A stretch of 64,000 nucleotides of DNA from Torpedo marmorata (taxonomy: Eukaryota), in NCBI GenBank assembly GCA_977017645.1, contig OZ360222.1:188666001-188730000 (forward strand), read 5' to 3'. Position 1 is the stretch's first letter; every line of letters starts with the position of its first letter. A model generated the notes under the pieces. The model did no database searches. It was given only the letters and a program-made list of their open reading frames with translations, and was not told the DNA's origin. Below are positions 16,146 to 62,869 of this stretch, in pieces. The position numbers were made by a program, and so were the translations under genes.

Positions 16146-17374
16146 GTAGGTGTTTCTGTTGCAATTTTTATTGCTAATATTTTTATAATGACAAATCCAA
16201 CATCTTGCTTCTATAAATGGAATATTTAATGGATGCGTGAAATTTTAAAATAACTTTATAAATTTAAAATGTTTTAAAATAAATATGGAACACATTTGTA
16301 GTGCAGCAGGGGAAGTATCTGAATTAAACTTGTGGTATAATGGTTTTAGTGTAATTGTGAAATTGGCAATAAGGTTGTTGAACTTGAAAGCCTGGCATCT
16401 TAAATTTATAAAATATTCAGTGCATTCAACAGTGCATCAGCTTGCATTTTAAGTACAAGTTATAGCCACACCTGATAATGGCTGATTAGGGATATAAATA
16501 AACTGCTGTTCTGAATTTGGCACCTTTGATAAATCAAATGCTCATGACAGTTTTCAGGCAATACTTTCCCCTTAAAAGACAATCTATACAATTATATGTA
16601 TATATGGTTACATTAAAATTAATTCTTAAGAAGCAGCACTAAATTGACATCCCTTGTTAATAACTTGGTTTTCTTGGTTAACAAGCTCTGTTCCCATCGT
16701 ATAAAACTCCAAATCTTGTCCTTGTATTTTAACTCTTTCCTGACCTACATGATGTTTTATCTGGAAAAGTCTTCAATTAGGAGTTTACCCTTGTTTCTGT
16801 ATTTTGTCCCAAATTTAATGGATAATGCATGGCCAAGTGATGTGCTTTCTCTGTACTGTTTACAAATGACTGAGGTTCTTGAAACTTGTGAGACAAAAGA
16901 CAAACTGCTGGAGAAACCCAGTGGCTCCAGCAGTATTTGTGGAAGGAAATAGAAGTTCCTCCAGCAGTTTGTTTTTTTTTGCTCCAGGTTCCAGCATATG
17001 CAATTTCTTGTGTTTCATCAAAAATTAAGAACCAGATAGCAATGTGACTTCTTTATTCCCTGAGTTTGAAACAGACCCATCATCCCAGTAATTATTTAAA
17101 TTGATTTAAAATTCCCTTCTTGGAAGGCGGATGTTAATTTGCTATAGTAGTTACATTGATGGACCTCAATATTATCTGATTAACCTTTTCCTTGTTTGAT
17201 TTTCTTACTGTTTATAATATTCATTGAGCTTCATGGGATAATTTGATCCGTTTTTTTTAATGATGTTGTATGTACAATATGTATTATCCAATAGTGTTGT
17301 TTAATCACAGTGATATTTGTTAATTATAATTTTAGTACTTCTGTGTATAATGTAAGTGGTTATCTTGTCCCTAG

Positions 17375-17507
17375 GTATATAGTTGACTACAAAAAGGAAG
17401 AAGTGGTAATGGTGAAATCTCCTTTTGTTAGACTTCAGTTGTCTGAAAAACAAATTACGCTCCAGATAAATGACAATGGAATTCAGGGCAATCTGAATAG
17501 GACCAAG
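17375..17507 (+). CDS. ZDHHC8: ZDHHC8 coding exon
   Basis: YIVDYKKEEVVMVKSPFVRLQLSEKQITLQINDNGIQGNLNRTK; AG/GTAAG. Confidence 0.88.
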
Positions 17508-18493
17508 GTAAGAGATGGAAATTGTGTTTTTAAAAATTGTTAAATATTTGTACTACTTTAGTTGGCTTTATAAACTATTTGCATTTTGAATTAACTGCCT
17601 ATGATTCTACAACTGCAAGAAAATAGCAATACAATAGCATTGGTCACATTTGCTGCTAAGCATTTTATGATTCTAGAAACTCTTTCTGGGTGCTAATGAA
17701 ATCAGATTATAAAGTTATAAATGTAATTTGGTTCCACTGTATATTTGGTAGCTTAGCATAAAGGGTTCAGAACTTAATGAACCTATCAGTTTCACCGCTT
17801 ATGATGTTAACCCAGTGTTGTGTAATCTCAATTTTGATGCGAAAGATAAAAATTGTAGCAAAGATCTCCAATTTCTTTTGTGTACTTGTTAATAGGTTGG
17901 GTGTCCAAACTATTTTTATCGATTAAAGTAAGCATCATAATTAGTTTTGGAGAAAGAAAGGTGGGAAATTGAATTAAAAATTGAATTGTATATTAGACAA
18001 ACCTGGCCAATTAAAATATTGAATGTGATAACCAAATATTTTCCCATTAACAAAATGCCTTTTAATACATTGCTTTTAACTTGCAGCAGGCATTCAAGCC
18101 TAATCAATTAATTTAAACAAGGGTATTAAATAAAGCACTGTGTGCAGTCCATTTTGATGATTATTCCATGAATATATTATCCTGCAGCAATAATTTTGTT
18201 TGTTATCCTTTGACAACCAATGTGATTATCATGATTTCTTATTACAGGTGTACTACCACCAGACTAAATACACCTTTTCATCTGGTTTTTGACTTTCAAA
18301 TTTATAAAATCCTTATATCTCCTTTGTAGAATGCAAAGATTTTAATTTCTGATGTGAAGGCTCAAAGTTACACATTTTAATGGAAGCACATGAATATACA
18401 AGAAAAAAAATTCTGACCTTAAAAATCAAAGTTAAAATAGTTATTGTGATGTTCCAAATTAAAAACTGCATTTCTTTTCTAAATTTTTTTTAG

Positions 18494-18617
18494 TCCAAAG
18501 GAAGTTTGGAGGCTTTGGATGTTCAATCAACAGAAGTCGAGCCCCCCCTCCCACCTAAACTAGGTCCGAGCAAATATGCAAACCTTAAAAACCAACTCAG
18601 TACTTCAGTCAATGAAG
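18494..18617 (+). CDS. ZDHHC8: ZDHHC8 coding exon
   Basis: SKGSLEALDVQSTEVEPPLPPKLG...; AG/GT, phase 0 to 1. Confidence 0.88.
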
Positions 18618-21432
18618 GTAATGAACTCAATGAGAAATAGCAATAATTCTGTTCAGAGGAAGTATTTAACTTATTGTTATTTGATTGTGTTATATTTTAG
18701 GTGGATAATGCAATGGGAGTTTCATGCCAGATAATAAGTATTCTACTTTCTCAAAATCACAATTATTACTTTTATTCTTGCCCTTCAACCTGTGTTACAA
18801 CTTATTCTTATTATCTTAAAAATCAGAAAAAGCAGGATATATTTGAAAGGTCAGGTAGCCTCTGTAGAGTGAGAAACAACGTTTCAGAAGAAATGGAAGC
18901 AGCAGGATCCAATTTGGCCCTTAAAATTCACTCCGCCAGACAATAAAATCATTGCAGATCTTTCTCTTAAAGTCATTGAGTCATACAGCACAGAACAGGC
19001 TCTTCAGCCCAACTTGTCCATGTCAACCAAGTTTGCATTTTGGACTAATTCCATTGGCCTGCATTTGGTCCATATTCCTCCAAGCCCCTCGCATCCATAA
19101 ATTTGTTCAAATTTTATTTGAGTGTATTTATTGTGTTTGCTTGTACAGTTTCCTTTGGCGGCTCATTCTATGTACAAACCATCCTCTGAGTTCCCTCCTA
19201 AGTACTTCCCCTCTCATCTTAAACCTTCAACTCCACTTTCCCACTAGAAACCCCATCCAGGAAAATATCAGCTCCACAAAAACCCTGTCAAGCTTTGTAA
19301 GAATTTTGTAAGTTTAATTTTGATCATGTGTTATTTTGCTAAAAAAAAATTATACAGGCCAGTCTACCTATTCACTCTTTCTATGACGAACCTGCTGTAC
19401 TGGGAATCAATCTGGTGAACTTTTGCTATACTTCCTCTATCATGGGTATATTCTACCTTGCACTAGGGGACCAGATCTATGCACACTATTCCAGGTGTGG
19501 GTCTGCTCTGGGAGCACTATTATTGGAGCAAGATATCTTTACTCTTAAAGACCAAGATGCTGTTCACCTTCTTACCTACCTGATGAGCATGCGTATTAAC
19601 TTTTAGCGATTCGTATACAAAGACAGCCAGATTTTGCTTAACACCTATACCTTTCAACCTCCACCCAGTGAAAATATACTCTGTCTTTTTATTCTTTCGA
19701 CCAAAGTGCACATTTTACTTTTTTCATGTTATATTCCACTTGAAATATCCTTACCCATTTCTTTAACTATCTATATCCCACGAAACCTCTCTGCTTCCTG
19801 CAGCTAATTTTGTAGCATCTGCAAAACTTGGATGTACTGTACATCATCCTCTCACTGAAATTGATGGAGCTTGCCAGTACCGATCCCTGTAGAAATTTAT
19901 TGTTCTGGCCTCTCAATCCAAAAATATCTGAAGATCTTAGACCTAAAAAATGTACTCAGTGTGACTCTCCTCCTGTGTGCCTGAGCTTCCAAACATTTCC
20001 AGCATTTTACATTTCCGATTTTCAGTATTTTGAGTTTGTATTCTTGTGAACTTTCTCCAATCATTTGATTCCTTGATATTTTCACCAAGTTGTCATTGCA
20101 TCTTGTTGAAAGAGGGAATGCACCTTGTTCCTTACTGCAGCAAATTAGTTTGACTACTTTTAGATAAGCAATATCAATAGAAATTATGCAAATATTACAA
20201 ACCGAGCTGAGCAAAGCATTAACCTTTGTTTCCATTTTAGATACTGACAGACTTCTATTTTATTTCCAGTATTTTTAAAGTTTTGCGTTAGAGGGGACGA
20301 TACAAAAAGAGGTCGCCATTCAGCCCCTCAATCCTGTTGGTCATTCCTGACTGATCTATAATCTAACCCCATGCGCCAACCCTTGGTATTTCTTATCAAC
20401 AAAACTGGCCAGCTGAGATTTAAATATAAATTGATAACATTTCATTAAAGTGAAATGACTTTAATATAATTAGTGAATTTTGTGTACATTTCCTGTCCTT
20501 ATCCATTAATTTTTTTAAAATTACTTCATTCTCTGAAGCATAATCTTTTTCACAGTACATTGGCAACTCAAGATCATCATTGGCAAATAGAAGTTGCTTG
20601 TTTATAATCGATTGAGAATAATGGAAAATGTTTTCTGTGCTCTTGGAAAGGCCACATTAGGTCCACAATAAAGTGTCTCATTTATTTTTCCTTTCCTTGC
20701 ACTGTAAGATCAGGTGTTCACCCAGTGGTTTGAAGTAATTCGTAACGTGCCATGTAGTAAAATAATGTGTGCAGTTAATAATTACAGTATTCATTTAACT
20801 GTGAACTATTCTGTTTGTCCCACAAGTGTTTTTCTGGTTATGTTTAAAATATGTGACCGGATGCTCCTTTCTTCTGCTTGTGTGTGAATATATACTTGTA
20901 TGTAACTTTGAGTGGAAGATAAGAAATTGTTAATGGTGGAAAGGAAACAGTTCATATGGCCCACATTGATTCTGATAGTCGACTCTGTAGCTAAAGTGAA
21001 CAGCACTGAATTGGGATTTGTGAAACATTTGAACTAAATAAGGCACTTTTCAACTACATTTCAAGCACTCTAATCCTAAATGTGAATATCTACATGTGCC
21101 TACACATGATCACTGGTTAATAATCATCACCAGGATTCCTGGTTGTTCCCTGTACAAAAGAACAACAATCAAGATTAAGTTATCTCCTTGACTGAAATCA
21201 TCTGACCTGACCTTAACTTGGTGTATTCTTGATATAATCAACCTTCCCACACATAATATTTTCTTCATCAATTTCCAAATTTATTCTTTAAAGCTTCAGA
21301 ATTCAAAACATAGGGCTTAAATTGTTTTAGATTTAAAACAATCATCGCGATAAAGATTTGTGGAAAAGGGAGGTCCATGTAAATGTCTTTGTGCTGATGA
21401 CATTTTGTAATTATTCATAGACAATCTTACTA

Positions 21433-21742
21433 CAGGTTGTACCTCTTTAATCCAGCGACGTTGGGACCTGGCTATTGCCAGACCACAGAAAATACCGGAA
21501 AACAGAAATTGACCCCTAAGGGAACCCACTATGTAAAACATATCAAAGGAAGAACAAAGCTTAAAACAGGAAATAATACTGTGGGGCGGCATGGTTAGCG
21601 TAGCGGTTAATGCAACACCTTTACAGCACCAGCGATCGGGACCGGGGATCGAGTCCCGTGCTGTCTGTAAGGAGTTTGTACTAACGGCGGCAGTTTCAAA
21701 CGTGCCGGACCACAGAGTGCCAGATAAGAGAGGTACAACCTG
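21433..21742. mobile_element. Tc1/mariner-pogo-type MITE with an internal V-SINE head (~21583-21682)
   Basis: 14-bp TIRs caggttgtacctct / agaggtacaacctg, each flanked by TA. Confidence 0.8.
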
Positions 21743-23730: not shown

Positions 23731-24464
23731 TCCACACAGATAGCACCAGTCAAGATTGAACCCAGAGCACTGGAGCTATGAGACAGCAGCATTGAGGTGC
23801 ACCATTGGACTGCCCATCATATGTACATTTATCCAGTACCTTTCCATGACCCCAGGCCATCCCAAAACAATTTAAGTAATGATAATGAGTTTATTGTCAT
23901 GTACATTATACAATGTACACAAGCATAGAAACTTTTCCTTCTGGAAACTGGTCGCTTTTGCAGTGAAGGACGTGGAAGCCAATTGTAGCACAGCAAGATC
24001 ACAATATGCAGTGCGATTATGCTCAGGTGGTCCATTTAATTTAAGTTGATTGAGGGATGAAATATGAGTTAGGCCAAAGGAAGGACGTCCCTCCTGTTAT
24101 TCAGAGCTGTACCACTGGAACTTTTCACTCGAGAGAGCTAATGGGGTCCTAGCTTAACACCTCATCTGGAAGTTTCACTCCCGGCTGTTGCAGTGGGATG
24201 TCATGATAGATTTTTATGCTCAAATGTCTGAAGTGGAATTTGAACCCACAGTCTTCCACTTCAAAGGGGACAGTTGTACCAACTGATCCACCAGACATTT
24301 TTAATTCAAATTTACAGTGAGTTAAAACCAAAACCACTTGTTATCTTTAACTCAAGCAAGGTCATATGGAATCAACTGAATTTTTAAAAAAGATGACATT
24401 GGCTGTGATTATTGACTGATGAAATTGATTAATTTTGGTAATTGTCAAATCTCCTATCTGAAAG

Positions 24465-25504
24465 ATTTCCATGCTGGATGGACATAAAGAGGCGCCTATC
24501 ATGGAAGAATGCAGCAGAGCTCACGATTACAGGTCCGAGCCAAATCTCGACATCCCTGACTACCGGTCACCATCGCTTCACAAGACTTACCAATCATCAC
24601 CGTTTCAGCTTGACTCGCTCTCCGTTAACTCTCGCTCTTTGAGCCTGAAATCTGCCCACAGGAGAGGAACAGACAAGGCTCAGTTACACCAAATGAAGTC
24701 TGACTGCTCATCCCCCAATCAGCATAAAAATAGCTTTGGTCTGAATTCGTTGTCCAACAGAAATGGAAGCCTATCCTATGATAGTTTGTTAAATCCCCCC
24801 TCTACGCATTCAGGGGTGGATTCCACAGCACATGTTGGAGTTCCAACCACGGGGTACCACTCACCATATTTATCAGCCAAAATGTGCCAGATACGAGGGG
24901 CAGATCTCCAGCATCAACCTGTGCAAGGTTACAGCCCGGTACATAGAGGCTCATCTCCACAGCAACGGGAGCCATCGCCAGTTCGATATGACAACCTTTC
25001 TAAGCAAATCATGGCCTCCATTCAAGAGAGAAAGGCAATGGAAGAGCGCAGAAAACTCAGAGCCTCACCTGATTCGGTGTTGCTGGACTCAGGGGCATGT
25101 GATGCGCCGGGCTCATACAACTTACAACAAATGGACACTTTCTCAGAGGACTCGAGAAGGACAACCACTGGCATGTGTGGTTCTCGAGATAACCTTATGT
25201 CTGCTGCTACCAGCAACACGAGGAGCCCTCTACTGCGCGCCTCTGCCTCCTCCCTTTCGAGCACGGTGTCAAGGGTAGCAAGGACTTCCACTAGTTCTCT
25301 CCACGCAGACATAGCAAACAACAATGTGAAGTCCAACCATACTTTGCAAAGCAGATCTGTTGAGACCTCGTTTAGGTCTTCAGGACATCAAATCCCACCC
25401 TCCTCATTGATTCGATCCCCGACTTATGGAAGCCAAAAGCCTCTCTCCTTTGTCACTGCAATGGAAATGTCAGAAGGAGTGCCTCAGCCTCTGATAACCC
25501 CACG
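24465..25504 (+). CDS. ZDHHC8: ZDHHC8 large coding exon, cytoplasmic tail
   Basis: ORF 24471..25508 with SRSLSLK, RNGSLSYDSLL, GYHSPYL and REPSPVRYDNLSKQIMASIQERK; donor GTAGGT, phase 2. Confidence 0.93.
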
Positions 25505-26586
25505 GTAGGTAAAACTCCTCCACTCTGAACCCTTGTAAAGCTGTGGGAATAAGCACCTTGAAATACAATCACAGTTTGCACCAACATATAATTTTGAATC
25601 ATTTTGTTTTCGGGAGCGATAGATATGGAGGATAATTTCAGGAATTTAACTGGGAATTTCCTGGCATAAGTCACCATTGCATTCCTTGTGTGACTTCTGC
25701 ATTATTCACACATGGGAACACGTCAACCCCTGTTCAGTTTTATTTTTGCAGCATTTAAACGGAACTTAAACCATGTTATCCCATGTACAATTGTGGTTGG
25801 GCTCTCCTAAGACAACTAGATCTTCATGCCACTACAGCATATTGGGTCCCCTTTAAGGTTAGTCTCCTACTTGTTTGAGGCCCTTCACCCACCATTCCTC
25901 TCAACCTTCCACCTGAGGGCTGCTCCCTCACCATTTGATCTTATTCCAAACGTACTCTGCTGGAGGAACTTGGCCAGTTGAGCAGCATCAGTCAGAGGAA
26001 AAGAATGGTCAATGATTCAGGCCAAAACCCTTTTTCTCCCACTAATGCTGTTTGATCCACTGAGTTCCTCCAGCGGAGTGTGTTTGGCTTCAGATTCCAG
26101 CATCTGCAGTCTCCTGCGCATCTCCTTTGATTGATTGATCCTCTTGATTCTGTGGAACAGTGAGTCCCTTAATGGTGGTCTTAATACCCAGTGCCCACCA
26201 CTTTTCTAATTCCTGCCCCACAGTCTGTGTTTCCAACTACAGCCTCATATCATTCTTTCCCCCTGCACCCAACCCACCTTCTCCTGATGTTGGCGTAGGT
26301 CCTCATTAGGTCTGTGGCCCATGTTCCTCTTGATCTTTGTACTGGTGAAAGTAGTCTTTGTTGCCACCTTGCAAAGTATTATAATGTGTTGGTAACAATG
26401 TGTTAATGGGGAGCTTGGTTATAGAAATGACAATATTAGTTCACTTTGCTTAATGACTCAATAAAAACAAATTTATTTTACTGCCCCCTCCACAATAGAG
26501 TTGGTCATAATCCTGAATAAACCGGCTGTGTGCTCCAGGAATATGTGGATTGAATGTATGAACCGACTACCTTTCTGTTTTTTCAG

Positions 26587-29700: not shown

Positions 29701-32700
29701 ATTGCCGCCGAGCTTTGAACCATCAGCACATTTGAGTGTATGGGATCATCAAACTCGATGATCCCAAAATGAATAATTGCATGCCATCGCACTATTCACA
29801 GCCTGTCAATTTGGTTATTGTCCTAATCCGTCTCTTTACCCCTTTCCAATCACTCCACTCCCTTTAAAGTTTTTTTGGCATTTCAGGTTTGATTATCTCT
29901 CCATTTATTTAGTACATAAACAGTTTTTTGAAATGTTATCCCTTGATACAAGACAATGTTTCCCCTCACATTTTGGTGAGATTCTTAGCTGTAGACATTG
30001 GACTCCCTCCTCAAGGTCACAACATAACTTAATGTTGCAGAATCTGATCCTATCATTGATCATTGCAACTCAGTTGAAAGTGATACCATTTCTCTGCTTC
30101 ATATTATGAAGCTATCTAAATCCTGGTATATTACATCACAGCGCAGTAGCTTATGAAAAATCACTCAAACTTGAGTACCGGATCCTCAGCTGCTTATGAA
30201 AATCTCACCAAGACCGGGTTCAAACCCCACCATGGTCTCGCTTTTCCTGATTTCTATAATCTCTTTCAATTCTGGCCTTCTAATTGCTATCAGGGGCTGT
30301 GCCTTCAGCTTCCAAGACCATAAGCTTTGTCATTCCCTCCTAACCCTTTTTGTCTTTCGGCCTCTCTGTCCTTTAACAGTATCTTCCCAATTCCTTTGGT
30401 TATCTGTTTTAACATCCCTGTAATTGTCAAATTTTCTTTGATAATTATCATATGAAACTTGTGTTTATTCAGTGTCTGTAATGTAATTAAAATGATTCTT
30501 GAAGTTGTACAAATATTCATTGTGTTGAAGTGCTTTGGTTATAAGGGGTACTATAGAATTGAAACTGTTTAAATGAGGCCACTTGGATAACAGTCGGTAA
30601 GACCAGCCATTCTCAACATTTTTTTGGATATGCCCCCCGCCCCCCACTCCCCCTCCCCTGGACTCAAAGTTTATGGGTCCCCTTCCCTGTGAAGCAGTCA
30701 CGTTTTTTGGTTTCTTCCATATTTCTACCGTCTACATACAAAATATTTATGTTGCGTGAGGTGAAAAGAAAACAAGGCTTTTACTTGAATGTGTTGTGGC
30801 CCCCATTGAGAATGGCTGGGTTTGACCACAGTCATCCTTGGTGAGCAGATCAGTGCATACAGAGCTGATGCTACAACCAATCTTCTTTGCAACCCTTTAC
30901 ATTTTCAATGAAAGTGGGAGGAATGCCTCAATTGCCCAGACATCAGACGAGTTGTGCTTTTGCTAATATTCCTACAAATTAAAAAAAGCATAAAATAACA
31001 GCTAAGTGATTGCACAACCAACGGATCAAATCAAAGCTTCACTGTCCTGCCATGGTCATGAATGGTGGTGGACAATTAAATAGGAGATGGCAACTCCAAG
31101 AACTTCCCTCCCCTTGGTGATGACAGGCCCCAGCATGTTAATGGCCAAAACCTTTACAGCATGTTCAGACAGAAGTACTGAGTGGGTGATCCATCTGAAA
31201 TTCCTCCTGAGAGCCCCACGTCACAGACGCTGTTCTCCAGCTAATTTGTTTCACTCCATAGTGATACTAGTAGACGACTGAATACAGCAAATGTTTTGGG
31301 ATCAGAAATCATTCCAGCTGTAATTCTGAAGCCTTGAGCCCCAGAATTAGCTTCATCTCTTGCCAAGCTATTCCAGTATTGTTACAATACTGGTATGAAC
31401 TTGACAATGTGGTTTAAAACAATCCCCTGGTACATTCTGTTCATGAAAAGCAGGACAAATCCAATCCCAGTGATTACAGCCTACTTTCAGTCATCAGTAA
31501 AGTATGACAGTTCAGTCAAACAACTACTCACCATCACTTGTTCACTGATCCCCAATTTGAGCTTCACCAACAACACTTGGCTCGAGACCTCAACATTACC
31601 ATGGTCTAAACAGCTGAATTCCATGTGAAATTGACCACCCTTGACATGAAGGCAGAACTTGACCATGTGCAGCATCAAGCAACGATAGCTGGTGTAATTT
31701 AAAGTCAATGGGCTTCAGGGGAATGCACTCCAATGGTTTGAGTTGAACTTTGCATCAAGGACAGTGGTTGTGGTTACTGGAGGTCAATCCCAGCCTCAGG
31801 ATGTCATTTAAGAATGCCTCTAGGAAGTGGCCTCAAGCCAACCACTTTCAGTTGTTTCATCAAAGAACTTTGTTCCATCGCTGGATCAAAGATGGCAATT
31901 GTCGTTGCACAAGTTTCAATTCCACAGTGAATGAAGCAGCTCAGAAGACCTGTTTCCAACAAACCTGTGACATCTACCACCAGGCCAATAGGTGCATTGG
32001 CAACATTCCCAGTAGTACGTCTTCCTCCTAATCATGCACCATCCAACATGGAAATATTTCTTGTTCTTTCATCATAAGTCTGTCTGAAACCTGGAACTTC
32101 CTACCCAACGTTGTGGGAGTACCTTCATCAGAAGGACTGCATTAGTTTCAGAAGCTGACTCAAACGCAGGTTCTCAAGGGAATTAATCTTGGGTGTATGA
32201 GAAAATGAATGAAAAATTGTCCGTTTTAAAACACATGATTTATACAATGTCGCCTTCATGTGGCACGCTTGATATAATATGACTCAGTGGTGTCCTGAAT
32301 CTTTGAAACTCCTGTTAATTATGCAGCTGGGCAACAGTTTAAGCAAAATAATCAGCATAAGGTTATTTTCAAATGTGCATTACTCAGCAGATAGCAGTGG
32401 TTGACATCAGTTTTCTTTGAATTATTACAGAGTCAAGCTATGATTGAAATGCCTTTGTCTGAAATACATTTGTAGTATCAGACTGCCTCCACTCCCCAAA
32501 TCCCCATAGATTTTGAATTCCTATCCCAGCACCACCAGGCAGCGAGACTTGCATTCCAATCCAATGCTTTCATTGACAACCTCAAATCAGAGCTGAACCA
32601 AATCTCTTCACAGACCTGAAACATCAACCATTCTTTTTCTCCCACTGATGCTGCTCAACCCCCTGAATTCCTCTAGAAGATTGTATTCTTTTGCATGTTG

Positions 32701-45605: not shown

Positions 45606-45779
45606 GTGGATTATATGATGGGTTTGAAGAAATGTCTTCAGTTCATCTGACCTGGGCCTGTCAGGAGTTGGATTGCGGTAATTAAATACAAAGAGGGCAA
45701 CAGAACCTTACCAGAGTTCTGTGGACATACTGAGTTCCTTGTTTAAGGAAGGATTTTAACATGTTAGAAGCTACCGGCC

Positions 45780-46325: not shown

Positions 46326-46584
46326 AAATCTCAGTGCAGAGAATATTTTCCAGACTAATACAAGGAATGGGTGAAAAGTATTGCACGTCAAGGTTAGACA
46401 GGTTAGGCTTATATCAGATAGAGTTTGGAAGAGTGAGAAAAGACTTGGTTGAAAGAGATAAATTCTCAACTGGAAAAGCCAAGTAAAAACTGCAGATGCT
46501 GGACATCGAAAATAAAAACAGAAAATGCTGGAAATACTCAGCAGGTCAGGCAGCATCTGTGGGGAGAGAAACAGAGGTGACCTG

Positions 46585-47500
46585 TGTTACAAATTCAAAC
46601 CAGCAACGACAGAAGACGCAATGCAAAAGGGGTAAAATTTGAAATTTATATTTATTAAAGATAATTAAACACATAATTTCACAACAATTAACCCCACTAT
46701 AAACGTCTATAAACACTATCCTTATCTAAAGAGTGTGTGTGTGTGTGTAAAGCCCAGACCATTACAGTCTGTGCCCAACCCTTATGTAAAAATGAAAAAC
46801 CTTCCCCAAAACCCCCAGGTCAGTCATAAAAACAAGTCAGTCCCAAAAATACAGTCCACAAAAATTCACTCTCTATGTTCAGGTTCCAAATTCAGCTCTG
46901 TGTGCTGGCAAGAAGGACTTCTTAATGAACGTTGGAGAGAGACAATGACTGTTTATGCTTGGCTTGCTTCTTCTCTGATGACTTTCCCTTCTGGTATTTT
47001 CACAAGGATTGCGAATCCAAATCCGTTCTGGATTGAGGCGTGTACTTGGATCTCACAGCCGGTCTCGCTGATCTCACGCCTGTTCTTCACAAAAGCGGCC
47101 CTCAACTCAGGATTTTGCCATAATCACCAAGGCCTTGTTTTTGGTCCCAACCTTTTCCCCTGGGATGCACAAGCCTGGATTTTTTTCTGATTCAGAAGGC
47201 TCTGTGTTCTTCTGTCAACCTTTTCTCTGGGATGCACAAGCCTGGATCCTGCTGAGTTCTCCCGCCTTTGCAACTCCAAAACTGCCACTGATTCAGTTTT
47301 TCACTGCCTTTTCAAAAAGTCCAACCAACCAAGTATGTATCTTTTCACAGTCTGTCTCCCCCTGGTGTCTCTCTCTGGTAAGTACAAGAAATCCTGGGCA
47401 AGTTAACTCTTTCAGTACCTGGTCCCAGTGTGTACTCCAAAAGACTTCATCCTTCCTGCTGACCGTCCTCAGTCCAAATGGTCAGTCATGGTCCATAACA
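46585..47500 (-). mobile_element. Solo LTR, gypsy-like termini
   Basis: TGTTA...TAACA ends; flanks cctg/catg (3 of 4 match); inverted homologue of 51316-52222. Confidence 0.85.
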
Positions 47501-47759
47501 CATGCAAACTCCACACGACCAACACCAGAAGTCAGGATGGAACATGGGTCTCTGAGATTCACTGCAACAATCACTCAGCTGCCCAGGCTTGTCCTCTGAT
47601 TGTCTTGTCACAGTCAGGTAATGGTGAATGAGCAGCTTTTGTTTGATTGTCTGCATATTTTACACCCAGTGAATTTAAAGCTTGAGATATTAAAATGCAC
47701 CAGTAAATTTAAACAGTAATTTTTCAAAGTTTCATCTGGATTATAAATGGACTTGATTA

Positions 47760-48367: not shown

Positions 48368-48476
48368 TATTTGCACCTTGTTAATATTTTGTGTTCAATG
48401 TGTTTCAATTGAGTAATGAAGTGGGAACATAACGGCATGGATATAATTTCCAATCCCTGAATGAATCTTCTAGTTT

Positions 48477-48706
48477 CAATAGCCTGAATACGACTGGGAT
48501 TGTCTGATCTTGGAAGCTAAGCAGGCACAGGACTGGTCTGTACTTGGAGGGGAGACCGCCTAGGAACACCAAGTGCTGTAGGTTTCTGTGAGGGGCACTG
48601 GACAAAGTAGCGACTCTCTGTCTGCTTTACGGTGGACAAAAATTAAAGAATTTCATGTATGTTACATTCTAAATGTAGTGTTACGTGACAATAATGGAAC
48701 CTTTAC
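48477..48706 (+). mobile_element. 5S rRNA-derived SINE (SINE3-like)
   Basis: 48481-48585 aligns to 5S rRNA (tctgatcttggaagctaagcagg...gtacttggaggggagaccgcctaggaacacc..gtgctgtagg), followed by a LINE-type tail; TSD ctagttt at 48470-48476 and 48707-48713. Confidence 0.85.
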
Positions 48707-49770: not shown

Positions 49771-51315
49771 TGAACATTCATATTTCAAAAAATTAAAAAA
49801 AGATTCTTAGAGCACAGTAGTTTGTACATTAGGTCATTAGGTAACCTTAAGCATAAACTCGAAGATGTGAAAACTTTGTAAAAAGAACTTTAAAAAATAA
49901 TTATTATAAAATGAAAATTTTCGTGAGACCCTTGAACTTGATGTTCCTGTGCAAATTTTTTGATGTCAGGCTCCAAATTGGATAGTGATAGTCGAAGGTC
50001 ACCTCTTGTTGTGATATCAAGTCTGTTCCTGGATTTTGTCAAGGAAACTACCTTGCTGAATCCACATTCAACTAAGTATGTTGAGGGAAAAGCAATGAAA
50101 AATATTTCAGCCTTTTCCCACAGTTTTGGAAATCTATTTGGCAGATTACTCTTAACCCAAAAATCTTTTATAAATCGACTGAACTTGTAGCGTGCAATTA
50201 TATCATTCTGTCTAGAATTTCTGCGTCAACATCGGTGGGTTGTTTATTAAATGGATTTAATATTCAACACTGGATATTGAGGATGAACAGGTCATTAAAT
50301 CTTTCTTGCAGATCTGTGTGTATTTGCTTTAGGTGTTTCACGTAAACAGTTTCCATGCCCACCCTAAATACCTTGGGGCCTCTATTGTTAAGGATTTTAG
50401 TCTATCCCCCCCGTCCCCCCAAATGTGCTGTGGCCCCCAGGAGGGGCTGTAGGGTCCCTGTTGAGAATGGCTGATCTGGAGCCCTTCCACACGGTTGGAG
50501 CTTACTACAGTCAGTGGGGCTGCAATTTGCACCCACCAGTTACTCATCCAGGCTACTCTGACAAACCCTCTCAAACCTGTGACCTGTACCTCCAGAGAAG
50601 TCCAGGGTAGCAGGTGCAGGGGAACACCACCACGTGCAGATTCCCCTGCAAGTCACACACTGTCTAGCTGGTTTTCTTTCATTCATTTAAACATTGTCGC
50701 TGAGTCTAAATCCTAGAAAAGAGATGAGGAACTGCATCTCCCAGAAAGTAGGGAACCTGTAGAGTTCTCTGTCCAGTGAAGCAGCGGACGTATTTGCCTC
50801 ATTGAATGTATTTAAAACACAGATTGATTTTTGAATAGTCGGGAATTAAGTGTCTTGGGGAACGGACAGGTAAGTGGAGTTCAGGGCCAGATCAGGCATG
50901 GAATGGTGGAGCAGGCCCGATGGGCCAAATGGCCTAGGCCTATTTCTTATGTCTTCCACTTTCCCCAGAAGGTCTGTACAGTTGCTGAAGAACAGGTCAG
51001 CATCACTTTCTGAAGGGGAATATGTGGAATTAGTTGGTGCGTTTGCATTGATGTCTTTGTCCTGAAAAACAAGACTGGATAATACGTATTCAGAGTTTCT
51101 GGTCTCAGTGGGAATGGGGGAGAGGTTGGAGGGGTTGCAGAGAAAAAGGAGGGGGAGTTGGGACTGGGTGTGTTATGCTCAGTGAGTGAATGCTGATAAT
51201 AGATCCTTTTGATGTCTTCAACTTATTTCCCACGTTGTTTATGAGGAGTGAAACACGAAAGTTTGCAGACGATGAGATTGTACTTAAAAACACAGCGTCC
51301 ACAGGAGGTAAAGAT

Positions 51316-52222
51316 TGTTATGGACCATGACTGACCATTTGGACTGCGGACGGTCAGCAGGAAGGATGAAGTCTTTTGGAGTATACACTGGGGCCAGGTA
51401 CTGAAAGAGTTAACTTCCCCAGCTACTTGGTGTACCCAGACAAGATACATTGTTGCACTCTTGGTGTACCCAGACAGAGAGAGACCAGAGAGAGAGAGAC
51501 AGACTGTGGACAAGATACATTTGTTTCACTTTTGCAAAAAGCAGGTGCAGATTTCTGCAGGAAAAGCAGACAGTTGTAAGTTGCAAAGGCTACAGGACAC
51601 AGCCAAATCCAGGCTTGTGAAAGCCAGAGAAAATCACTGGCAGAAGAGCACATGGCCTCTTGTCTCAGAGAGAAATTCTGAGAAAAAGCAACTTCTGTGG
51701 AGAACAGGCGTGAGATCAGCGAGACTAGCTGTGAGATTCAAGCACACGCCTAAATCAGTGGTATACTGATCTGGAACTTGCAATCCTTATGAACATACAA
51801 GAAGGGGATATCATCAGAGAAGAAAACAAGTATTTGTAAGCATAAACAGTCATTGTCTCTCTCCAACGTTCATTCAGAAGTACTTCTACCAGACACAGAG
51901 CTGAATTGTAGCCTGAACTTAGAGAGTGAATCTTGTGGACAGTATTATTCTCTCTTTTTTGACTGACTTGTTTTTTATGACTGACCTGGGGTTTTTTTGG
52001 GAAAGTTTTTCCATTTTTACATAAGGGTTGGGCACAGACTGTAATAGTCTGGGCTTTACACACACACAGACACACCTTTTAGATAAGAATAGAGTTTATA
52101 GACGTTTATAGTGGGGTTAATTGTTGTGAAATTATATGTTTACTTGTGTTTAATAAATAATAATTTCAATTTTACCCCTTTTGCATTGCGTCTTCTGTCG
52201 TTGCTGGTTTGATTTTGTAACA
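51316..52222 (+). mobile_element. Solo LTR, gypsy-like termini
   Basis: TGTTA...TAACA ends; perfect 4-bp TSD AGAT at 51312-51315 and 52223-52226; AATAAA near the 3' end. Confidence 0.9.
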
Positions 52223-52366
52223 AGATATATTTATAAACATTAAAATAACTGACCTGGGGAATGGAATAACAGATAGCATGGAAGGGGCGGTCTGGATGCA
52301 GAATTTAAATCGTATGCACTTTCCTGCTGTTAATAACCTGCAAGTTCTTGCTCTTACTGCTGGTTG

Positions 52367-52542
52367 AGTAAAAACACAATGTTGCAGAAACTCAGCAGGT
52401 CAAACAGTGTCCTTTATACAGCAAAGATAAAGATACATAACCAACGTTCTTGGGCTTGAGCCCTTCATCATGATATTGTATCTTTGTTATATAAAGTTCT
52501 CTGTTTGACGTGCTCGAGTTTCTCCTGCATTGTATTTTTACT
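52367..52542. mobile_element. Miniature inverted Penelope-tail element
   Basis: agtaaaaa...tttttact ends, inverted arms, and a degenerate hammerhead-like motif on the minus strand at ~52443-52472. Confidence 0.8.
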
Positions 52543-52544
52543 GT

Positions 52545-54150
52545 AGTAAACACGAAAATCTGTAGACACCGTGGATGAAGTAAAAAACACAAAAGCTGGA
52601 GAATTCAGCAGGTCAAACAGTGTCTTTTATGTAGCAAAGGTAGAAATACATAACCGACGTTTCAGGCTTGAGCCCTTCTTCAAAGTATGAGAAAATGCCG
52701 GCAGACGTCCGAACAAAGGAGTGAGGGGGGAAGGGGGGTGGCAAAGGCAGGAGATGATAGGTGGAGAAAGGAGGGAGGGGACAGCAGCAGAGGGGGAGGA
52801 GGGATGGCTGGTTGGGTGGAAAAAACAGGAAGTACAGGTGAGGGGGAGGGGAAGGGAACAACAAGCTGGTTTAGTGGAAAGCAGAAAAGTCAATGTTAAT
52901 TCCATCTGGCTGGAGAGTGCCGAGACGGAAAATGAGATGTTGTTCCTCCAATTTGCGGGTAGTCTGGGTGGGATAGTACATGAGGCCATGGACAGACATG
53001 TGAGCGTGGGAGTGTGACCCAGAATTGAAATGGTTGGCTACTGGGAGGTCGCTGTTGTTGCGGACGGAGAGGAGGTGCTCAGCAAAGCGGTCTCCCAATC
53101 TACGACCGGTCTCTCCAATGTATAGAAAGCCACAAAGGGAGCACCGGATGCAGTAGATAAGTCCTCTGGATGTACAAGTGAAGTGTAGTTTCACTTGAAA
53201 GGCCTGTTTGGGGCCCTGGACCGTGGTGAGGGGGGAGGTGTGGGCGCAGGTGTTGCACCTCCTGCGGGCACAGGGGAAGGTTCCGGGGGTGCGATGGGTG
53301 GGGAGGGACGAGTGCACGAGTGAATCACGGAGGGAGCGGTCCCTACGGAAGGCCGAGAGGGGAGGAGAAGGAAAAATGTGTCTGGTGGTGGGATCCTGCA
53401 GCAAGTGCCGGAAATTCCGGCGGATAATGTGTTGGATGCGGAGGCTGGTGGGGTGGTAGGTGAGGATGAGGGGTATTCTATGTTTGTTGCGTCTGGGGGC
53501 AGAGGGGGCCAGGGCAGATGAGCGGGAAATGGAGGAGATGCGGGTGAGGGCTGAGTTGATGGTGGTGGAGGGGAAGCCACGTTTGTGGAAAAAGGCAGAC
53601 ATTTCAGAAGATCTGGAGTGGAACACCTCATCTTGGGAACAGATGCGGCGGAGGCGGAGAAATTGAGAGAAGGGGATGGAGTCCTTGCAGGGGACAGGGT
53701 GTGAGGATGTGTAGTCCAGATAGTTGTGGGAGTTGGAGGGTTTGTAGTAAATGTCGGTGGAAAGCTTGTCTCCCGAGATGGAGACAGAGAGATCCAGGAA
53801 GGGGAGAGTGTTATCGGAGATGGACCAGGTGAGTTTGAGATCGTGGTGAAAGTTGGATGCGAAGTGGATGAAGTTGACAAGCTCATCGTGGGTGCATGAG
53901 GCAGCCCCGATGTAGTCGTCGATATACCGGAGGAAGAGATGAGGGGTCTTGCCTGTGTAGGCTTGCAGCATGGATTGCTCCACAAAGCCCACAAACAGGC
54001 AGGCGTAGCTGGGACCCATGCGGGTACCCATGGCTACTCCTTTGATTTGGAGGAAGTGGGATGAGTTGAAGGAGAAGTTATTGAGAGTAAGGACAAGTTC
54101 TGCCAGGCGGAGGAGGGTGGTGGTAGAGGGTGACTGGTCGGGTCTTTGGT
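52545..54150 (-). mobile_element. 5'-truncated Penelope-like element, left arm (RT + GIY-YIG)
   Basis: ORF 52871..54241: KGVAMGT, RYIDD, CARRRCNTC linker, GLIYCIRC...LYIGETGRRLGDRFAEH. Confidence 0.95.
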
Positions 54151-54163
54151 TCTTCCTGGAAAT

Positions 54164-55923
54164 AACTAGTTTCATCTTACCTTGACTCCATCTTTTCTCC
54201 CCTGGTCCAATCCCTCCCCACCTACATCCGCGACACCTCACATGCCCTCCATCTCCTCGATGACTTCAGATTCCCTGAACCGGACCGCATCATCTTCACC
54301 ATGGATGTCCAATCCCTTTATACCTCTATCCCCCACACAGAAGGTCTGAAAGCACTTCGCTTCTTCCTGGACCAAAGACCCGACCAGTCACCCTCTACCA
54401 CCACTCTCCTCCGCCTGGCAGAACTTGTCCTTACTCTCAATAACTTCTCCTTCAACTCATCCCACTTCCTCCAAATCAAAGGAGTAGCCATGGGTACCCG
54501 CATGGGTCCCAGCTACGCCTGCCTGTTTGTGGGCTTTGTGGAGCAATCCATGCTGCAAGCCTACACAGGCAAGACCCCTCATCTCTTCCTCCGGTATATC
54601 GACGACTACATCGGGGCTGCCTCATGCACCCACGATGAGCTTGTCAACTTCATCCACTTCGCATCCAACTTTCACCACGATCTCAAACTCACCTGGTCCA
54701 TCTCCGATAACACTCTCCCCTTCCTGGATCTCTCTGTCTCCATCTCGGGAGACAAGCTTTCCACCGACATTTACTACAAACCCTCCAACTCCCACAACTA
54801 TCTGGACTACACATCCTCACACCCTGTCCCCTGCAAGGACTCCATCCCCTTCTCTCAATTTCTCCGCCTCCGCCGCATCTGTTCCCAAGATGAGGTGTTC
54901 CACTCCAGATCTTCTGAAATGTCTGCCTTTTTCCACAAACGTGGCTTCCCCTCCACCACCATCAACTCAGCCCTCACCCGCATCTCCTCCATTTCCCGCT
55001 CATCTGCCCTGGCCCCCTCTGCCCCCAGACGCAACAAACATAGAATACCCCTCATCCTCACCTACCACCCCACCAGCCTCCGCATCCAACACATTATCCG
55101 CCGGAATTTCCGGCACTTGCTGCAGGATCCCACCACCAGACACATTTTTCCTTCTCCTCCCCTCTCGGCCTTCCGTAGGGACCGCTCCCTCCGTGATTCA
55201 CTCGTGCACTCGTCCCTCCCCACCCATCGCACCCCCGGAACCTTCCCCTGTGCCCGCAGGAGGTGCAACACCTGCGCCCACACCTCCCCCCTCACCACGG
55301 TCCAGGGCCCCAAACAGGCCTTTCAAGTGAAACTACACTTCACTTGTACATCCAGAGGACTTATCTACTGCATCCGGTGCTCCCTTTGTGGCTTTCTATA
55401 CATTGGAGAGACCGGTCGTAGATTGGGAGACCGCTTTGCTGAGCACCTCCTCTCTGTCCGCAACAACAGCGACCTCCCAGTAGCCAACCATTTCAATTCT
55501 GGGTCACACTCCCACACTCACATGTCTGTCCATGGCCTCATGTACTATCCCACCCAGACTACCCGCAAATTGGAGGAACAACATCTCATTTTCCGTCTCG
55601 GCACTCTCCAGCCAGATGGCATTAACATTGACTTTTCTGCTTTCCACTAAACCTGCTTGTCTTTCCCCCCCCTCCCCCCTCACCTGTCCTTCCTGTTTTT
55701 TTCCACCCACCCAGCCATCCCTCCTCCCCCTCTTTGCTGCTGTCCCCTCCCTCCTTTCTCCACCTATCATCTCCTGCCTTTCCCACCCCCCTTCCCCCCT
55801 CACTCCTTTGTTCCGACGTCTGCCGGCATTTTCTCATACTTTGAAGAAGGGCTCAAGCCTGAAACGTCGGTTATGTATTTCTACCTTTGCTACATAAAAG
55901 ACACTGTTTGACCTGCTGAGTTT
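54164..55923 (+). mobile_element. 5'-truncated Penelope-like element, right arm (Cys-rich linker suggests the Neptune group)
   Basis: Open frame from ~54165 (LVSSYLDSIFSPLVQSLPTYIRDT...MDVQSLYT) to the stop at 55650; hammerhead-like TTGAAGA-AGGGCTCAAGCCT-GAAACGTC at 55841-55868. Confidence 0.95.
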
Positions 55924-55936
55924 TTACTGCTGGTTG

Positions 55937-57659: not shown

Positions 57660-58815
57660 CAATGTTAGGCCATCCGGCCCATCGAGCCTGTTCTGCTATT
57701 CAATAAGATCATGGCTGATCTGGCCATGGACTCGGCTCCACCTATTCACCTGTTACCCATAACCCCTAATTCCCATCCTATGCAAAAATCTATCTCTCTG
57801 CGTCTTAAATCTATTCAGGGAGGCAGCCTTTACTGTTTCATTAAGCAGAGAATTCCACAGATTTACTACTCTCTGGGAGAAGTAGTTTTTTTTTAGACAT
57901 ACAGCACAGTAACAGGTCATTTCGGCCCACGTGTCCGTGCTGCCCAATTTACACCCCATTAACCTACACTCCCGGTATGTTTCGAACGGTGGGAGGAAAC
58001 TGGAATCCCCGGGGAAAACCCACGCAGACACGGGGAGAACGTACAAACTCCTTACAGACAGCGCGGGATTCAAACACCGGTCCCGATCGCTGGCGCTGTA
58101 AAGATGGAGTGCTAACCGCTACGCCAACCGTGCCACCCTTTTCATCTCTGTTTTAAATCTACTCTGCTGAATCTTGAGGCTCCGTCCCCTAGTTCTCGAC
58201 TCGCCTGCCGGTGAAAATAAATTCCTGCTTCTATCTTATCTATTCCTTTCACAAGGGGCAAATATTTTACACAGAGGGTGGTGGGTGCCTGGTGTAGTGG
58301 GGGAAGTAGATACATTTTAACAAAAAGCAGTAGCATTTTAAGAGGCTTCTCGATGGACACATGAATATGAAGGGGATGGAGGGATATCTGTCAGTGCAAG
58401 TAGATTTTTTAGCTTTGATTTGTACATGTTCAGCGGAGACATGTGGGCCGAAGGTCCTGTTCCTGTGCCTTAGTATTGTATGGTCCATAATTTTGTACGT
58501 TTCTATGAGATCATCCCTCATCCTATAAACAGCAGTGAGTATAGTCCCTGGCGACTCAGTCTCTCCTCATAAACTAACTCCCTCATTACCGGAACCAATC
58601 ATGAACCTCCTCTGCACCGCCTCCAAAGCCAGAATATCCTTTCTCAAGTAAGGAGACCAGAACTGCATGCAGTACTCCAGGTGTGGTCTTACCAGTACCC
58701 TGTACAGTTGCAGCAGAACCTCCCTACTCTTAAATTCAATCCCTCTGGCAATGAAGGACAACATCCTGCTTGCCTTCTTGATTACTTACTACATCTACAA
58801 ACAAACCTTTTGTGA
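57660..58815 (-). mobile_element. CR1 3' fragment interrupted by a V-SINE (57894-58138) and an opposite-strand CR1 tail
   Basis: ORF 58567..58764 FIARGIEFKSREVLLQLYRVLVRPHLEYC; FSQRVVNLWNSL; V-SINE motifs. Confidence 0.8.
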
Positions 58816-60625: not shown

Positions 60626-60719
60626 AAGTGAGGCTGCATTTGCTCCACTGGGCTGCTGATGCAGGAGCACAAGTGAGGCTGCATTTGCTCCACTGGGCTG
60701 CTGATGCAGGAGCACAAGT
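60626..60719. repeat. Perfect 45-bp tandem duplication
   Basis: aagtgaggctgcatttgctccactgggctgctgatgcaggagcac x2. Confidence 0.9.
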
Positions 60720-60849
60720 TTAAATTTAGCTCAAATAAATGTGAAATAAATGAGTTAGTGAAGTGGTCGGGTTATTGCAAGGATCAGTTTGATTGCCTGA
60801 TGTCCTCTGGGAAGGAAATCTGTCCTTCTCCAGGAAAGTGCAATACTGT

Positions 60850-60965
60850 ACATAGATGTGTTGGAGAAACTCAGCAGGTCACCCAGCATCCATAGGAAGT
60901 AAAGGGTAACCAACGTTTCGGTCCTGGGCCCTTCATCAGCGTTCTCCAGTCTGGCCTGTGTATTG
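60850..60965 (-). mobile_element. Penelope-tail element with an intact hammerhead-like core
   Basis: Minus strand CTGATGA-AGGGCCCAGGACC-GAAACGTT at ~60912-60939; related copy at ~61450-61640. Confidence 0.72.
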
Positions 60966-62869
60966 ACAGCATTATGGTTCACTCTTAACCTGCCTCGAGT
61001 CACCCAGCCAGCACAGGCAGTAAGTAAGTGGTCACCATAGCGACAAGTAAAAAATTATTTTCAATTTATCTTTTAAGTTGTGATGATGGGGGCTAAGGTG
61101 CCCATTCTGTCCCCCATTCTGGCCAGGGCAGTGATAATGCAGCCCTTACACTTCCAACGACCCGGGTCCAGTTCTATGCTGTCTGTGTGGAGTTTGCAGG
61201 TTTCCCTCGAGTACTCGTTTCCTCCCACATCTCAAAGACTTGCAGCTTAGCCACTGTAAATTCCTCCGGGTATAGGGTCTGCTGGGCGAATTGGGGGAGG
61301 GGGTATTAAGGACCACATGGGGGAGAATAGGTTGCAGGGAATTAAGTGGGGTAATGGAATAGTATTTTGCCCAAGTTCCTAGTGACTCTTTGTATACAAG
61401 TTGACAGGGTGCCAGTTAAACAGGAATGTCTGCAGAGGCTGGGGTCGAGTGCAGTACTCAAACGTGCTGGAGAATATCAGCGGGACACGCAGCATCCAGA
61501 GGAAGTAAAGGGTAACCAACGTTTCGGGCATGGGCCATTCATCGAGTATCTGGTAAACCTGGTAGCAGCCTGAATAAAAAGGTGGGGGAGGAACACAAGC
61601 TGACAGGCAAGAGGTAATTAGGTGGATACAGGGGGGAGAAAGAAGCGATGAAGTCTGGCCCTGCCTGGGAACGACGGACTGATGATTATGGGGGTGAGCT
61701 TGCTTGAGTATTCCGATAAAATTGTTTGTTCAAAATCCCATCCAACAGTGTGGAGGGGTTTTGGGTAAACTGTTGTGGAAACAAAAGCTGGCCTTAATTT
61801 GTGGAAAAAAAATTAAATTCTCCAACTTCAGGTTCATCTTAGATGACATGGAGACTCCCAGAGACATTCCTCAACTGTGGGGGGCATGTACAAGACCAGT
61901 CTCCACCCAGGTGAAACAGAGAATGCGTGGACATCCCTCCCCACTGCGGGGGGTGGGGGGGTGGTGCTGTGGGCTCTGCATGCCCGACCTGGTGGGCAGC
62001 TCAGCGTGGCTGGTCGATGAGCCATGCACATCTTGGCCACAGTCTGTTGGGGACTCGGTGTCCGGTTGCTTGATGCAGCCCGACGTCTCCCTGCAAAAGC
62101 AGGAACAAGAAGGATGCAGCGTTAATCGAGAGGAAAGTGTCGGGAGTTCCTGGGATGTACACAGGACCACTCCCGTAAAAGGGCAAATGAGGGTGGGTCC
62201 AGGAATGAGTCAATTAAAGGAGAGAAAGTCTGAGACAATGGTGATGCACTGGGATTTAAGTGGGCGATGGAGGGAAGTGTGACAACATTTGGTTAATCTG
62301 AGAAAAATTGGTCTTGAGGGACTTGGATAAAAGTTAGGATGATAAAATAGGTCACAATGTCACAGTCATCCAGCATGGAAACAAGCCCTTTGGCCCATCT
62401 TGCCCATGCTGATCAAGTTCCCTGCCTGAGCTTGTCCCATTTGCCTGAGTTTGAACCATATCCCTCTAAACCTTTCATATCCACATACCTGTCCAAATGT
62501 CTTATTAAAATGTAATTTCATATGCCTCTGGCAACTCATTTCACTTTGCTGCTGTGTGGAAATATTACTCCTCTCTCCCTCTCTCAACCTCCCCCTTCTT
62601 AGCACTTTGATTTTTTGGGACCTCTTTGTGAGGCCCGGTGACAGGTTTTGTTATAACTCTGTGAAGTGCCTTGAGGACTTTCACCATGTTGTCAGAATAC
62701 TGGGCTCCAGAAAGTGTTGTGGTGTGTGGATTGTGCCACTTGATTTGCCTTCATTGCACCTTTGTAAGGACCTACAAGAGTGTTCACCAGACAGGTGATT
62801 ACAGAAGGAGGAGCGGTTTGTAATAGCTACCGGCTGTTCATACTGAGCACTTGCGTGCTGTGATTCCAG

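Follow-up and report, generated by a model that had tools for sequence, protein, structure and literature searches.

The 64,000-nt stretch of the Torpedo marmorata genome studied here (C11:188666001-188730000 in a genome of 6.2 Gb; hereafter the window) contains a series of small head-to-head repeats, which are 5'-truncated insertions of a Penelope-like element (PLE) and do not form a separate family of mini-elements. The 3' end of an arm is either tailed (L end) or tailless (S end), and a pair is called tail-out when a minus arm is followed by a plus arm; positions in the element, or unit, follow the full copy at L052:3471-7384 (3,914 nt). A first-pass annotation of the window had listed six short tail-out pairs, a coding copy of 3.5 kb with the same layout and several single arms, and every one of these stretches aligned with the final ~150 nt of the coding copy. 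An arm profile, run over 584 kb (the window, 200 kb of neighbouring sequence and 320 kb of arbitrarily placed stretches), gave 91 matches and none on the reversed sequence; matches no more than 60 nt apart were tail-out in 13 cases, tail-in in three and tandem in none. The profile recovered the coding copy and five of the short pairs, but only one arm of the sixth, at 60850-60965.

The coding copy is tail-out, as annotated, with a length of 3.38 kb (52547-55924) rather than 3.5 kb. Its left arm (52547-54150, minus strand) is a 5'-truncated PLE that covers unit 2308-3914, bears the 32-nt tail (L end) and is 98.6% identical to the L052 unit. The right arm (54164-55924, plus strand; window position = unit + 52063) covers unit 2101-3861, is tailless and 98.9% identical to the unit, ends ~20 nt before the usual S end and retains an open reading frame (ORF) remnant, aa 688-1181, with the reverse transcriptase (RT) core and the GIY-YIG domain; since the first 687 aa are missing, this copy cannot be a source. 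It is flanked by a 9-nt target-site duplication (TSD; 52535-52543 and 55921-55929), the first copy of which lies within the right end of an older mini pair at 52367-52543 (minus arm, unit 3779-3878, 84% identical to the young unit; plus arm, unit 3816-3878, 77%). The older pair has a 13-nt TSD of its own (52354-52366), whose right copy was moved to 55924-55936 by the later insertion. The two are thus nested, the young copy having inserted in the right-hand TSD copy of the 52 kb mini.

The 12-bp TSD reported for the tail-out pair of an older subfamily at 45160-45605 (tailed minus arm, tailless plus arm) proved to be exact (12 nt; 45148-45159 / 45606-45617). In three further old tail-out pairs, at 16888-17016 (left edge approximate, 16868/16895), 25937-26125 and 33380-33582, the tail is on the plus arm; a TSD was looked for in these three and not found, and the only clear TSDs in the window are the 12 nt at the 45 kb pair, the 13 nt at the 52 kb mini and the 9 nt of the coding copy. 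The arm recovered near 60 kb is tailless (60845-60943, minus strand) and starts ~6 nt before a hammerhead core of the C3 type; at 60850-60965 an inverted partner could not be established beyond a faint resemblance of at most ~25 nt, and no TSD was found. Solo tailed arms are present, as annotated, at 9078-9187 (minus; unit 3803-3913; possible 14-nt TSD with two mismatches, 9064-9077 / 9185-9198), 33947-34065 (plus; old subfamily) and 46485-46570 (minus; old subfamily). The one placed at ~61450-61640 starts, tail included, at 61418 (61418-61640, minus) and has a hammerhead-like core and an upstream pyrimidine tract. The profile added old arms at 32610-32693 (plus; E 5.6e-13), 44782-44866 (minus; E 1.2e-10) and 45033-45131 (plus), and a short degraded tailed arm at 51251-51315 (minus; E 3e-4). 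We rejected 44782-45131 as one pair, given the 166 nt of non-PLE-looking sequence between its arms, and a blastn match at 18819-18878 was not recovered by the final profile.

As judged from its sequence, the parent element appears to be a canonical endonuclease-containing (EN+) PLE of the Neptune/Nematis type, with the arms as 5'-truncated 3' ends of its 3,914-nt unit, in line with the earlier proposal that these repeats look like miniature inverted-repeat transposable elements (MITEs) and are retro-derived. The full unit in L052 has an ORF of 1,181 aa with RT and GIY-YIG. Among loci chosen for long open frames, L051, L052 and L061 have a truncated tailed copy that directly abuts the full unit at its 5' side, a partial tandem that forms the pseudo-long terminal repeat (pLTR). 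A first look with a 120-aa protein query gave 243,486 candidates, and all 150 of the 150 scored were 100% identical over the 120 aa. The 1,181-aa ORF matched RVT_1 (E 4e-6) and GIY-YIG (E 0.002) in Pfam, both below the curated cut-offs, and its top Atlas clusters were RT/GIY-YIG at 0.97-0.98. It contains DKG at aa 590, YIDD at aa 831 and, at aa 1049, a Cx4CxxC motif that satisfies the CX2-5CxxC RT-EN linker of the Neptune/Nematis clades; its GIY-YIG domain is of the CCHH type, with two cysteines between LIY (1086-1088) and YIG (1099) and histidines at 1114 and 1129. A single ORF of RT and C-terminal GIY-YIG, with DKG and CCHH, agrees with the definition of canonical EN+ PLEs in PMC8557442, as do the pLTR partial tandem, the adjoining inverted 5'-truncated copy and the optional 30-40-nt tail. 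The 32-nt tail here holds a small predicted hairpin (z not significant) between two U-rich repeats, and the ATG of the full unit follows the tail by ~40 nt.

The most regular property of the pairs is their division into a tailed and a tailless arm. The 3' ends fall at two discrete spots, unit 3877-3885 (S) and 3913-3914 (L), and 100 of 109 distinct pairs, many of them chosen through spacing patterns without reference to their ends, were L+S; four others combined an L arm with a truncated end, three were LL and two SS, these last five all being in multi-piece loci. All 36 paired sites among 100 unselected ones (the first 100 tail sites on contig C1) were likewise L+S, where independence predicts 49%. 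A TSD was present in 80 of 84 young L+S pairs and in 0/60 mismatched-flank controls, and measured 13-16 nt in 71 of the 80 (median 14, mode 14). The two nick sites show similar, weak base preferences; among 54 solos, a repeat of at least 12 nt was seen in 15 (counted by eye). The pairs measured from <200 nt up to 3-4 kb, and in the long ones both arms contain ORF sequence. At the inner junctions of the 109 pairs we found microhomology of 1-8 nt (45), blunt joins (seven), inserts of 1-20 nt (42) and longer inserts (15). In 55 of 100 pairs it was the S arm that extended further 5', in 35 the L arm, and in ten they were equal. Among 55 short pairs there were 50 junction types, and an 8-nt palindrome that forms the junction in 3/60 minis occurred with two different marker sets; these observations point to repeated independent formation and not to a clonal mini family.

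The genome contains 141,888 exact copies of a 17-mer from the tail, and 25 chance pairs per orientation are therefore expected in a 31-nt bin. When pairs were tabulated genome-wide against chance adjacency, as the first-pass annotation had proposed, gaps of 60-90 nt gave 959 tail-out and 28 tail-in pairs (~25 expected by chance in each inverted class) and 322 tandem pairs, satellite arrays included (50 by chance). Tail-out pairs numbered 1,992 at 91-120 nt, 2,829 at 121-150 nt and 1,281 at 151-180 nt, 7,061 in all over 60-180 nt versus 98 by chance. Inverted pairs are common, yet they are not the rule, and the word routine, used for them at first, does not hold: an inverted partner that has a 3' end of its own was present at 36 of the 100 unselected sites (23 pairs by position, a duplicated segment included), with an inverted internal piece at 13, a same-strand piece at 12 and neither at 39. 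Head-to-tail arrays of PLE tail pieces with periods of 46, 80 and 95 nt were seen at three loci (C11:121744749-121745683, C30:223060484-223060980 and C5:283622816-283623022) and are possibly satellites born from truncated copies.

Partner arms carry the same source variants. At non-CpG diagnostic sites, with five complex loci and pairs of <90% identity left out, arms disagreed at 22/436 cells in 23 long pairs (null 24.7 +/- 2.7%), at 3/123 in 55 short pairs (null 38.9 +/- 4.6%) and at 1/18 in eight mixed pairs (2/1,000 null draws as low), that is, a discordance of 2-6% versus 25-43% in random partners; more than 20 haplotypes of the element coexist. Private mutations were shared by the arms of a pair in three cases and unshared in 102; therefore, the match dates from insertion, without later homogenisation, and gene conversion was rejected as the origin of arm identity. 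At the four sites for which short and long arms were compared, their alleles agree. Lengths were coupled as well: among 29 pairs chosen by neither spacing nor protein, 14 were short-short, 11 long-long and four mixed (Fisher p 1.5e-4; 3.8e-4 minus one duplicate).

The minimal type I hammerhead annotated at first, with the palindrome ACGT in place of stem III, was borne out: the motif occupies unit 3772-3812, has the core boxes, stem I, stem II and the palindromic stem III remnant, and its predicted cut falls after 3805. In the coding copy, a strict motif scan placed it at 55841-55868 (plus; U3-G8 variant, predicted cut after 55868) and at 52656-52683 (minus). Three of the annotated cores, at 45512(+), 55841(+) and 52683(-), fit the strict motif, which occurred in 0 of 30 shuffles, whereas that at 60912-60939 passes a relaxed pattern only, because of a stem II mismatch. 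A search with the hammerhead models of Rfam gave no family match, and minimum-energy folding did not recover the monomer hammerhead (z -1.1 to 0.5, not significant). Of 120 older copies, 79 fit the relaxed pattern, with 84-94% of stem II pairs intact; stem I positions 2 and 3 covary among these 79 (0/1,000 shuffles each, kinship ignored), and position 1 covaries no more than in shuffles. The core at 45512 is the canonical C3, and the copies at 45 kb and 60 kb retain C3-G8; the older copies have U3 in 55 cases and C3 in 22, with G8 kept, and the C-to-T variant is therefore a lineage feature. In the young lineage, U3 faces G8, and the loss of the Watson-Crick 3-8 pair probably lowers activity. 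In this respect the young lineage, with its predicted ribozyme, differs from the U3-A8 covariation described in PMC4209133 (Cervera and de la Pena 2014); otherwise it shares with the minimal PLE hammerheads of that paper the order core-stem II-GAAAC, the palindromic stem III remnant and the single unpaired base ahead of stem II. Directly before stem I, the 45 kb subfamily has a pyrimidine tract that ends in CAG (45496-45511), similar to the intron acceptor of the Drosophila virilis Penelope (PMC4209133), while the young family, unlike that element, has no AG there.

Where the arms begin bears on the template. Of the 36 arms with 5' ends in unit 3740-3842 at unselected sites (three duplicates dropped), 15 start at 3771-3786 (p 1.6e-4), ~30 nt upstream of the predicted cut site, and one in 344 arms starts at that site (3806). 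Genome-wide, 1,900 ends fell at 3770-3774, 936 at 3747-3751 and 359 at 3802-3806, ratios that are approximate, as the search patterns differ slightly between zones. Hammerhead cleavage as the origin of the minis was rejected on these counts (1/344; 359 vs 1,900), and the idea that the ribozyme delivers templates from the general RNA pool is disfavoured by the same rarity and by the matching variants of partner arms. At the other end, 24/71 short and 48/97 long tailed arms continue into at least five bases of the ORF leader, a sequence with two variants, and match it over up to 10-13 bases; no other flank recurs after the tail in the 168 tailed ends. As the tailed ends run on into the leader, the template probably carried tail and then leader, as at the pLTR-ORF junction. 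T runs of 8-28 nt past the four templated U follow several tailed ends (L150:1674, L136:5386, L119:2539 and L208), which suggests reiterative copying at the start site. In L284, L254, L275 and L304, same-strand joins link arms to remote parts of the unit (e.g. 1-187 to 3778-3880), consistent with template jumps. With regard to transcription, unit 3771-3777 holds a candidate initiator-like motif. Unit 3750-3757 matches the Penelope downstream promoter element (PMC2377424) with one mismatch, and the two candidates imply different start sites. Four RNA contig sets from other organisms contain sequence related to the pLTR-ORF junction, although contigs cannot show a start.

The reading that we favour, with a rough probability of 0.72, is a staggered double cut followed by two primings on RNA of the same source, independent truncation and end-joining. 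A protein dimer would cut both target strands with a ~14-nt stagger, and each cut end would prime reverse transcription on RNA of one source copy, one primer starting at the near (tailless) site and the other at the far (tailed) site. Both cDNAs would start at the pLTR-ORF junction of the RNA, and their other ends would be joined by host end-joining; in solos, one primer would give little or no cDNA. Minis of ~180-280 nt would result when the two cDNAs both end a little upstream of the hammerhead, probably where the RNA has its 5' end or close to it. Long arms would require RNA with ORF sequence upstream of the pLTR-ORF junction, for which read-through tandem transcripts, a template jump or a circle (proposed in PMC4209133) may be considered; linkage across 111 long arms did not separate a fixed crossover at the cut site (circle) from one near 3773 (jump). 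As to the number of templates, we lean somewhat toward a single RNA molecule serving both primers and favour this over two RNAs from the same locus, a possible but clearly less probable arrangement. Going further, priming may be concerted on one RNA whose form, linear or hammerhead-circularised, sets arm length, an idea that is tentative and rather unlikely to hold. If it is true, the dimer cut is fixed at ~14 nt and the two RTs start at sites flanking the tail hairpin; on a linear transcript both would run off at the 5' end upstream of the hammerhead, giving paired 'strong-stop' minis, and pLTR hammerheads acting as a dimer in cis would circularise the RNA (or a template jump would occur), so that the RTs would continue into the ORF and produce long arms and partial tandems. 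On this view, the part of the ribozyme dimer would be to choose which form of template is used, not to supply two of them.

Several points weigh against the double cut with paired priming, or against its one-template form. Two overlapping cDNAs drawn from one RNA would need strand displacement, and if one locus dominated expression in germ cells, two RNAs would give matching arms too. The arms of the coding copy of the window are discordant (6/27 sites in one comparison, 5/33 in another), mostly within unit 3557-3860, and so are those of L283 (3/17) and L071 (2/8); in all three, the differences lie in the last few hundred bases, contrary to a strict one-template rule. Some events therefore used two templates or a template switch. 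Moreover, the 936 ends at 3747-3751 beside the 1,900 at 3770-3774 indicate a broad 5'-end zone with no hard edge, 5' ends within long-long pairs show no rank correlation (rho 0.05, n=24; median difference 353, compared with 681 after permutation, p 0.019), and a separate set of 19 protein-selected pairs has no length coupling (rho -0.04, n=19). In PMC11167929, the start site is the same for the top and the bottom strand, which neither predicts nor excludes coupling. For this family, the whole scheme is inferred from sequence.

The first-pass annotation had proposed a separate non-autonomous palindromic family, and its general form, with palindromic minis copied as units (a retro-MITE) or as DNA-transposon MITEs, can draw on the narrow TSD length, on a few junctions that recur and on a real size peak (959/1,992/2,829/1,281 pairs at 60-90/91-120/121-150/151-180 nt). 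We regard it as very improbable, given that a clonal element should be homogeneous with symmetric termini, while 50 junction types were found in 55 short pairs and 100 of 109 pairs are asymmetric, with unequal ends and a one-sided tail. The recurrent palindrome junction with its two marker sets, the alleles common to short and long arms at four sites, the recurrence of the ORF leader alone after the tail and a size range that extends to 3-4 kb, where both arms include ORF sequence, speak against it as well. Still less probable is self-priming, in which a single cDNA would fold back at a palindrome and serve as its own template, as was proposed for rotifer PLEs (PMC3846280). It would account for variants common to both arms and for the 8-nt palindrome at the junction of 3/60 minis; however, a tailed arm cannot copy a tailless one, the S arm reaches further 5' in 55/100 pairs and the L arm in 35/100, both outer ends abut the ~14-nt TSD at defined start sites, and most junctions are microhomologies (45/109), blunt joins (7) or inserts (57) rather than hairpins. 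Fold-back is largely refuted for complete pairs, although it may lie behind some of the 13/100 sites with an inverted internal piece.

Closer to the ribozyme proposal of the first-pass annotation is a dimer of RNAs from the same locus, in which two pLTR RNAs, or the two pLTRs of one transcript, would pair through ACGT and bring two templates to each cut. The source-variant match excludes free pairing from an RNA pool unless one locus dominates, and a symmetric dimer by itself leaves the strict tailed/tailless split unexplained. In favour of the dimer, the palindrome is conserved between subfamilies, two positions of stem I show compensatory change, the 5'-end pile-up lies within the 5' half of the hammerhead and a minority of pairs has discordant arms. 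Published evidence likewise divides: minimal PLE hammerheads cleave only as dimers, and weakly (PMC4209133), but Naiad PLEs without canonical hammerheads form the same inverted one-tailed structures (PMC8557442), and catalytic hammerhead mutants left insertion in vitro unchanged, though pairing is not addressed there (PMC11167929). On balance, we consider the dimer unlikely.

With at least 141,888 exact tail 17-mers of the young family in the genome, each insertion may be taken as a readout of the integration reaction, and any mechanism has to satisfy four constraints, namely tailed with tailless arms, a ~14-nt stagger, a common source and short arms paired with short. The value of the data lies in these quantitative constraints on PLE integration, the insertion system itself not being new; for annotation, such palindromes are best entered as PLE insertions, neither as MITEs nor as microRNA-like hairpins. 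In LINE-1 twin priming, both target strands prime cDNA and an inversion arises inside one TSD, the two segments being adjacent, non-overlapping parts of one RNA; here, in contrast, the same 3' region is covered twice, once by each arm, from two fixed starts 32 nt apart.

The inverted copy, the one-sided tail, dual hammerheads on opposite strands and cleavage as dimers are already published. Like canonical EN+ PLEs (Penelope of D. virilis and Pen2a_Av of Adineta vaga; Craig et al. 2021, PMC8557442; Arkhipova et al. 2013, PMC3846280), the present family shows 5' truncation, the pLTR partial tandem, an inverted 5'-truncated copy adjoining the 5' end head-to-head, a TSD around the whole unit and a 30-40-nt tail, often at one end only. 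It differs from them as described in that the tail split is near-obligate (100/109 pairs) and the TSD narrow (mode 14), whereas PMC8557442 has it variable and set by second-strand cleavage after target-primed reverse transcription, and PMC3846280 lists 8-10 bp. Same-source arms were measured here, and we found no report of them for canonical EN+ PLEs in the available parts of these two papers. More generally, the literature searched, which excluded older subscription papers, held no report of arms from the same source, of a TSD near-fixed at 14 nt or of obligate L+S coupling, and the origin of the tandem and inverted structures of PLEs is a stated open question in PMC8557442 and PMC11167929.

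The PAc protein (Poseidon, Anolis carolinensis) cleaves and extends both strands in vitro and is a predicted dimer; two RT start sites bound its tail, the RNA downstream of them is required, and hammerhead cleavage is dispensable (PMC11167929, Frangieh et al. 2024). Our family resembles it in having two start sites that bound the tail and internal initiation, here deduced from genomic ends. PAc, however, belongs to the Poseidon clade and has its hammerhead and tail inside the ORF start (PMC11167929), whereas the present element has the Cx4CxxC linker, the ATG ~40 nt past the tail and U-rich start repeats flanking the small predicted hairpin; inverted pairs are not treated in PMC11167929. In Schistosoma, dual minimal hammerheads lie 100-700 bp apart on opposite strands (PMC4209133). 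Animal non-LTR retrozymes (bioRxiv 10.64898/2026.07.22.740005) and the non-autonomous Chlamys elements are, like the arms, short non-coding pLTR-related sequences, and the retrozymes also carry type I hammerheads; unlike those, which are head-to-tail tandem families with a consensus of their own, the repeats described here are head-to-head, individually truncated pieces of a coding element, and the elements of the window are head-to-head or single, with no head-to-tail tandem units bearing a hammerhead.

Other features of the window lie between the arms. Long inverted repeats of ~900 nt (46585-47500 and 51316-52222; 80-98% identical in pieces) bound a 5.6-kb element that resembles a DNA transposon of the type with long terminal inverted repeats; none of its open frames was identified as a transposase, and a TSD was not found. 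Sequence matching its end adjoins a PLE arm in L193, and a degraded 5S rRNA-like sequence lies within it at 48466-48584 (36.6 bits vs a gathering score of 38). The minus strand of 215-8050 holds broken open frames with no Pfam match, whose motifs resemble those of the protease and integrase of retroviruses or LTR elements; a LINE RT frame (3794-5995; RVT_1 E 6e-37) lies between them, and a 58-nt minisatellite occupies 619-1029. A 348-codon open frame at 24462-25508 (plus) is probably a large exon of a host gene; it holds a putative motif of the ZDHHC5/8 palmitoyltransferases, but had no Pfam match and no Atlas match >0.85 to confirm it. Copies of a dispersed short repeat, presumably SINE-like, occur at 2519-2614, 21584-21681, 35398-35484, 41778-41829, 47503-47554 and 58041-58138. 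Finally, 42139-44687 is a 2.5-kb minisatellite of 37-nt units followed by 46-nt units with a common core.

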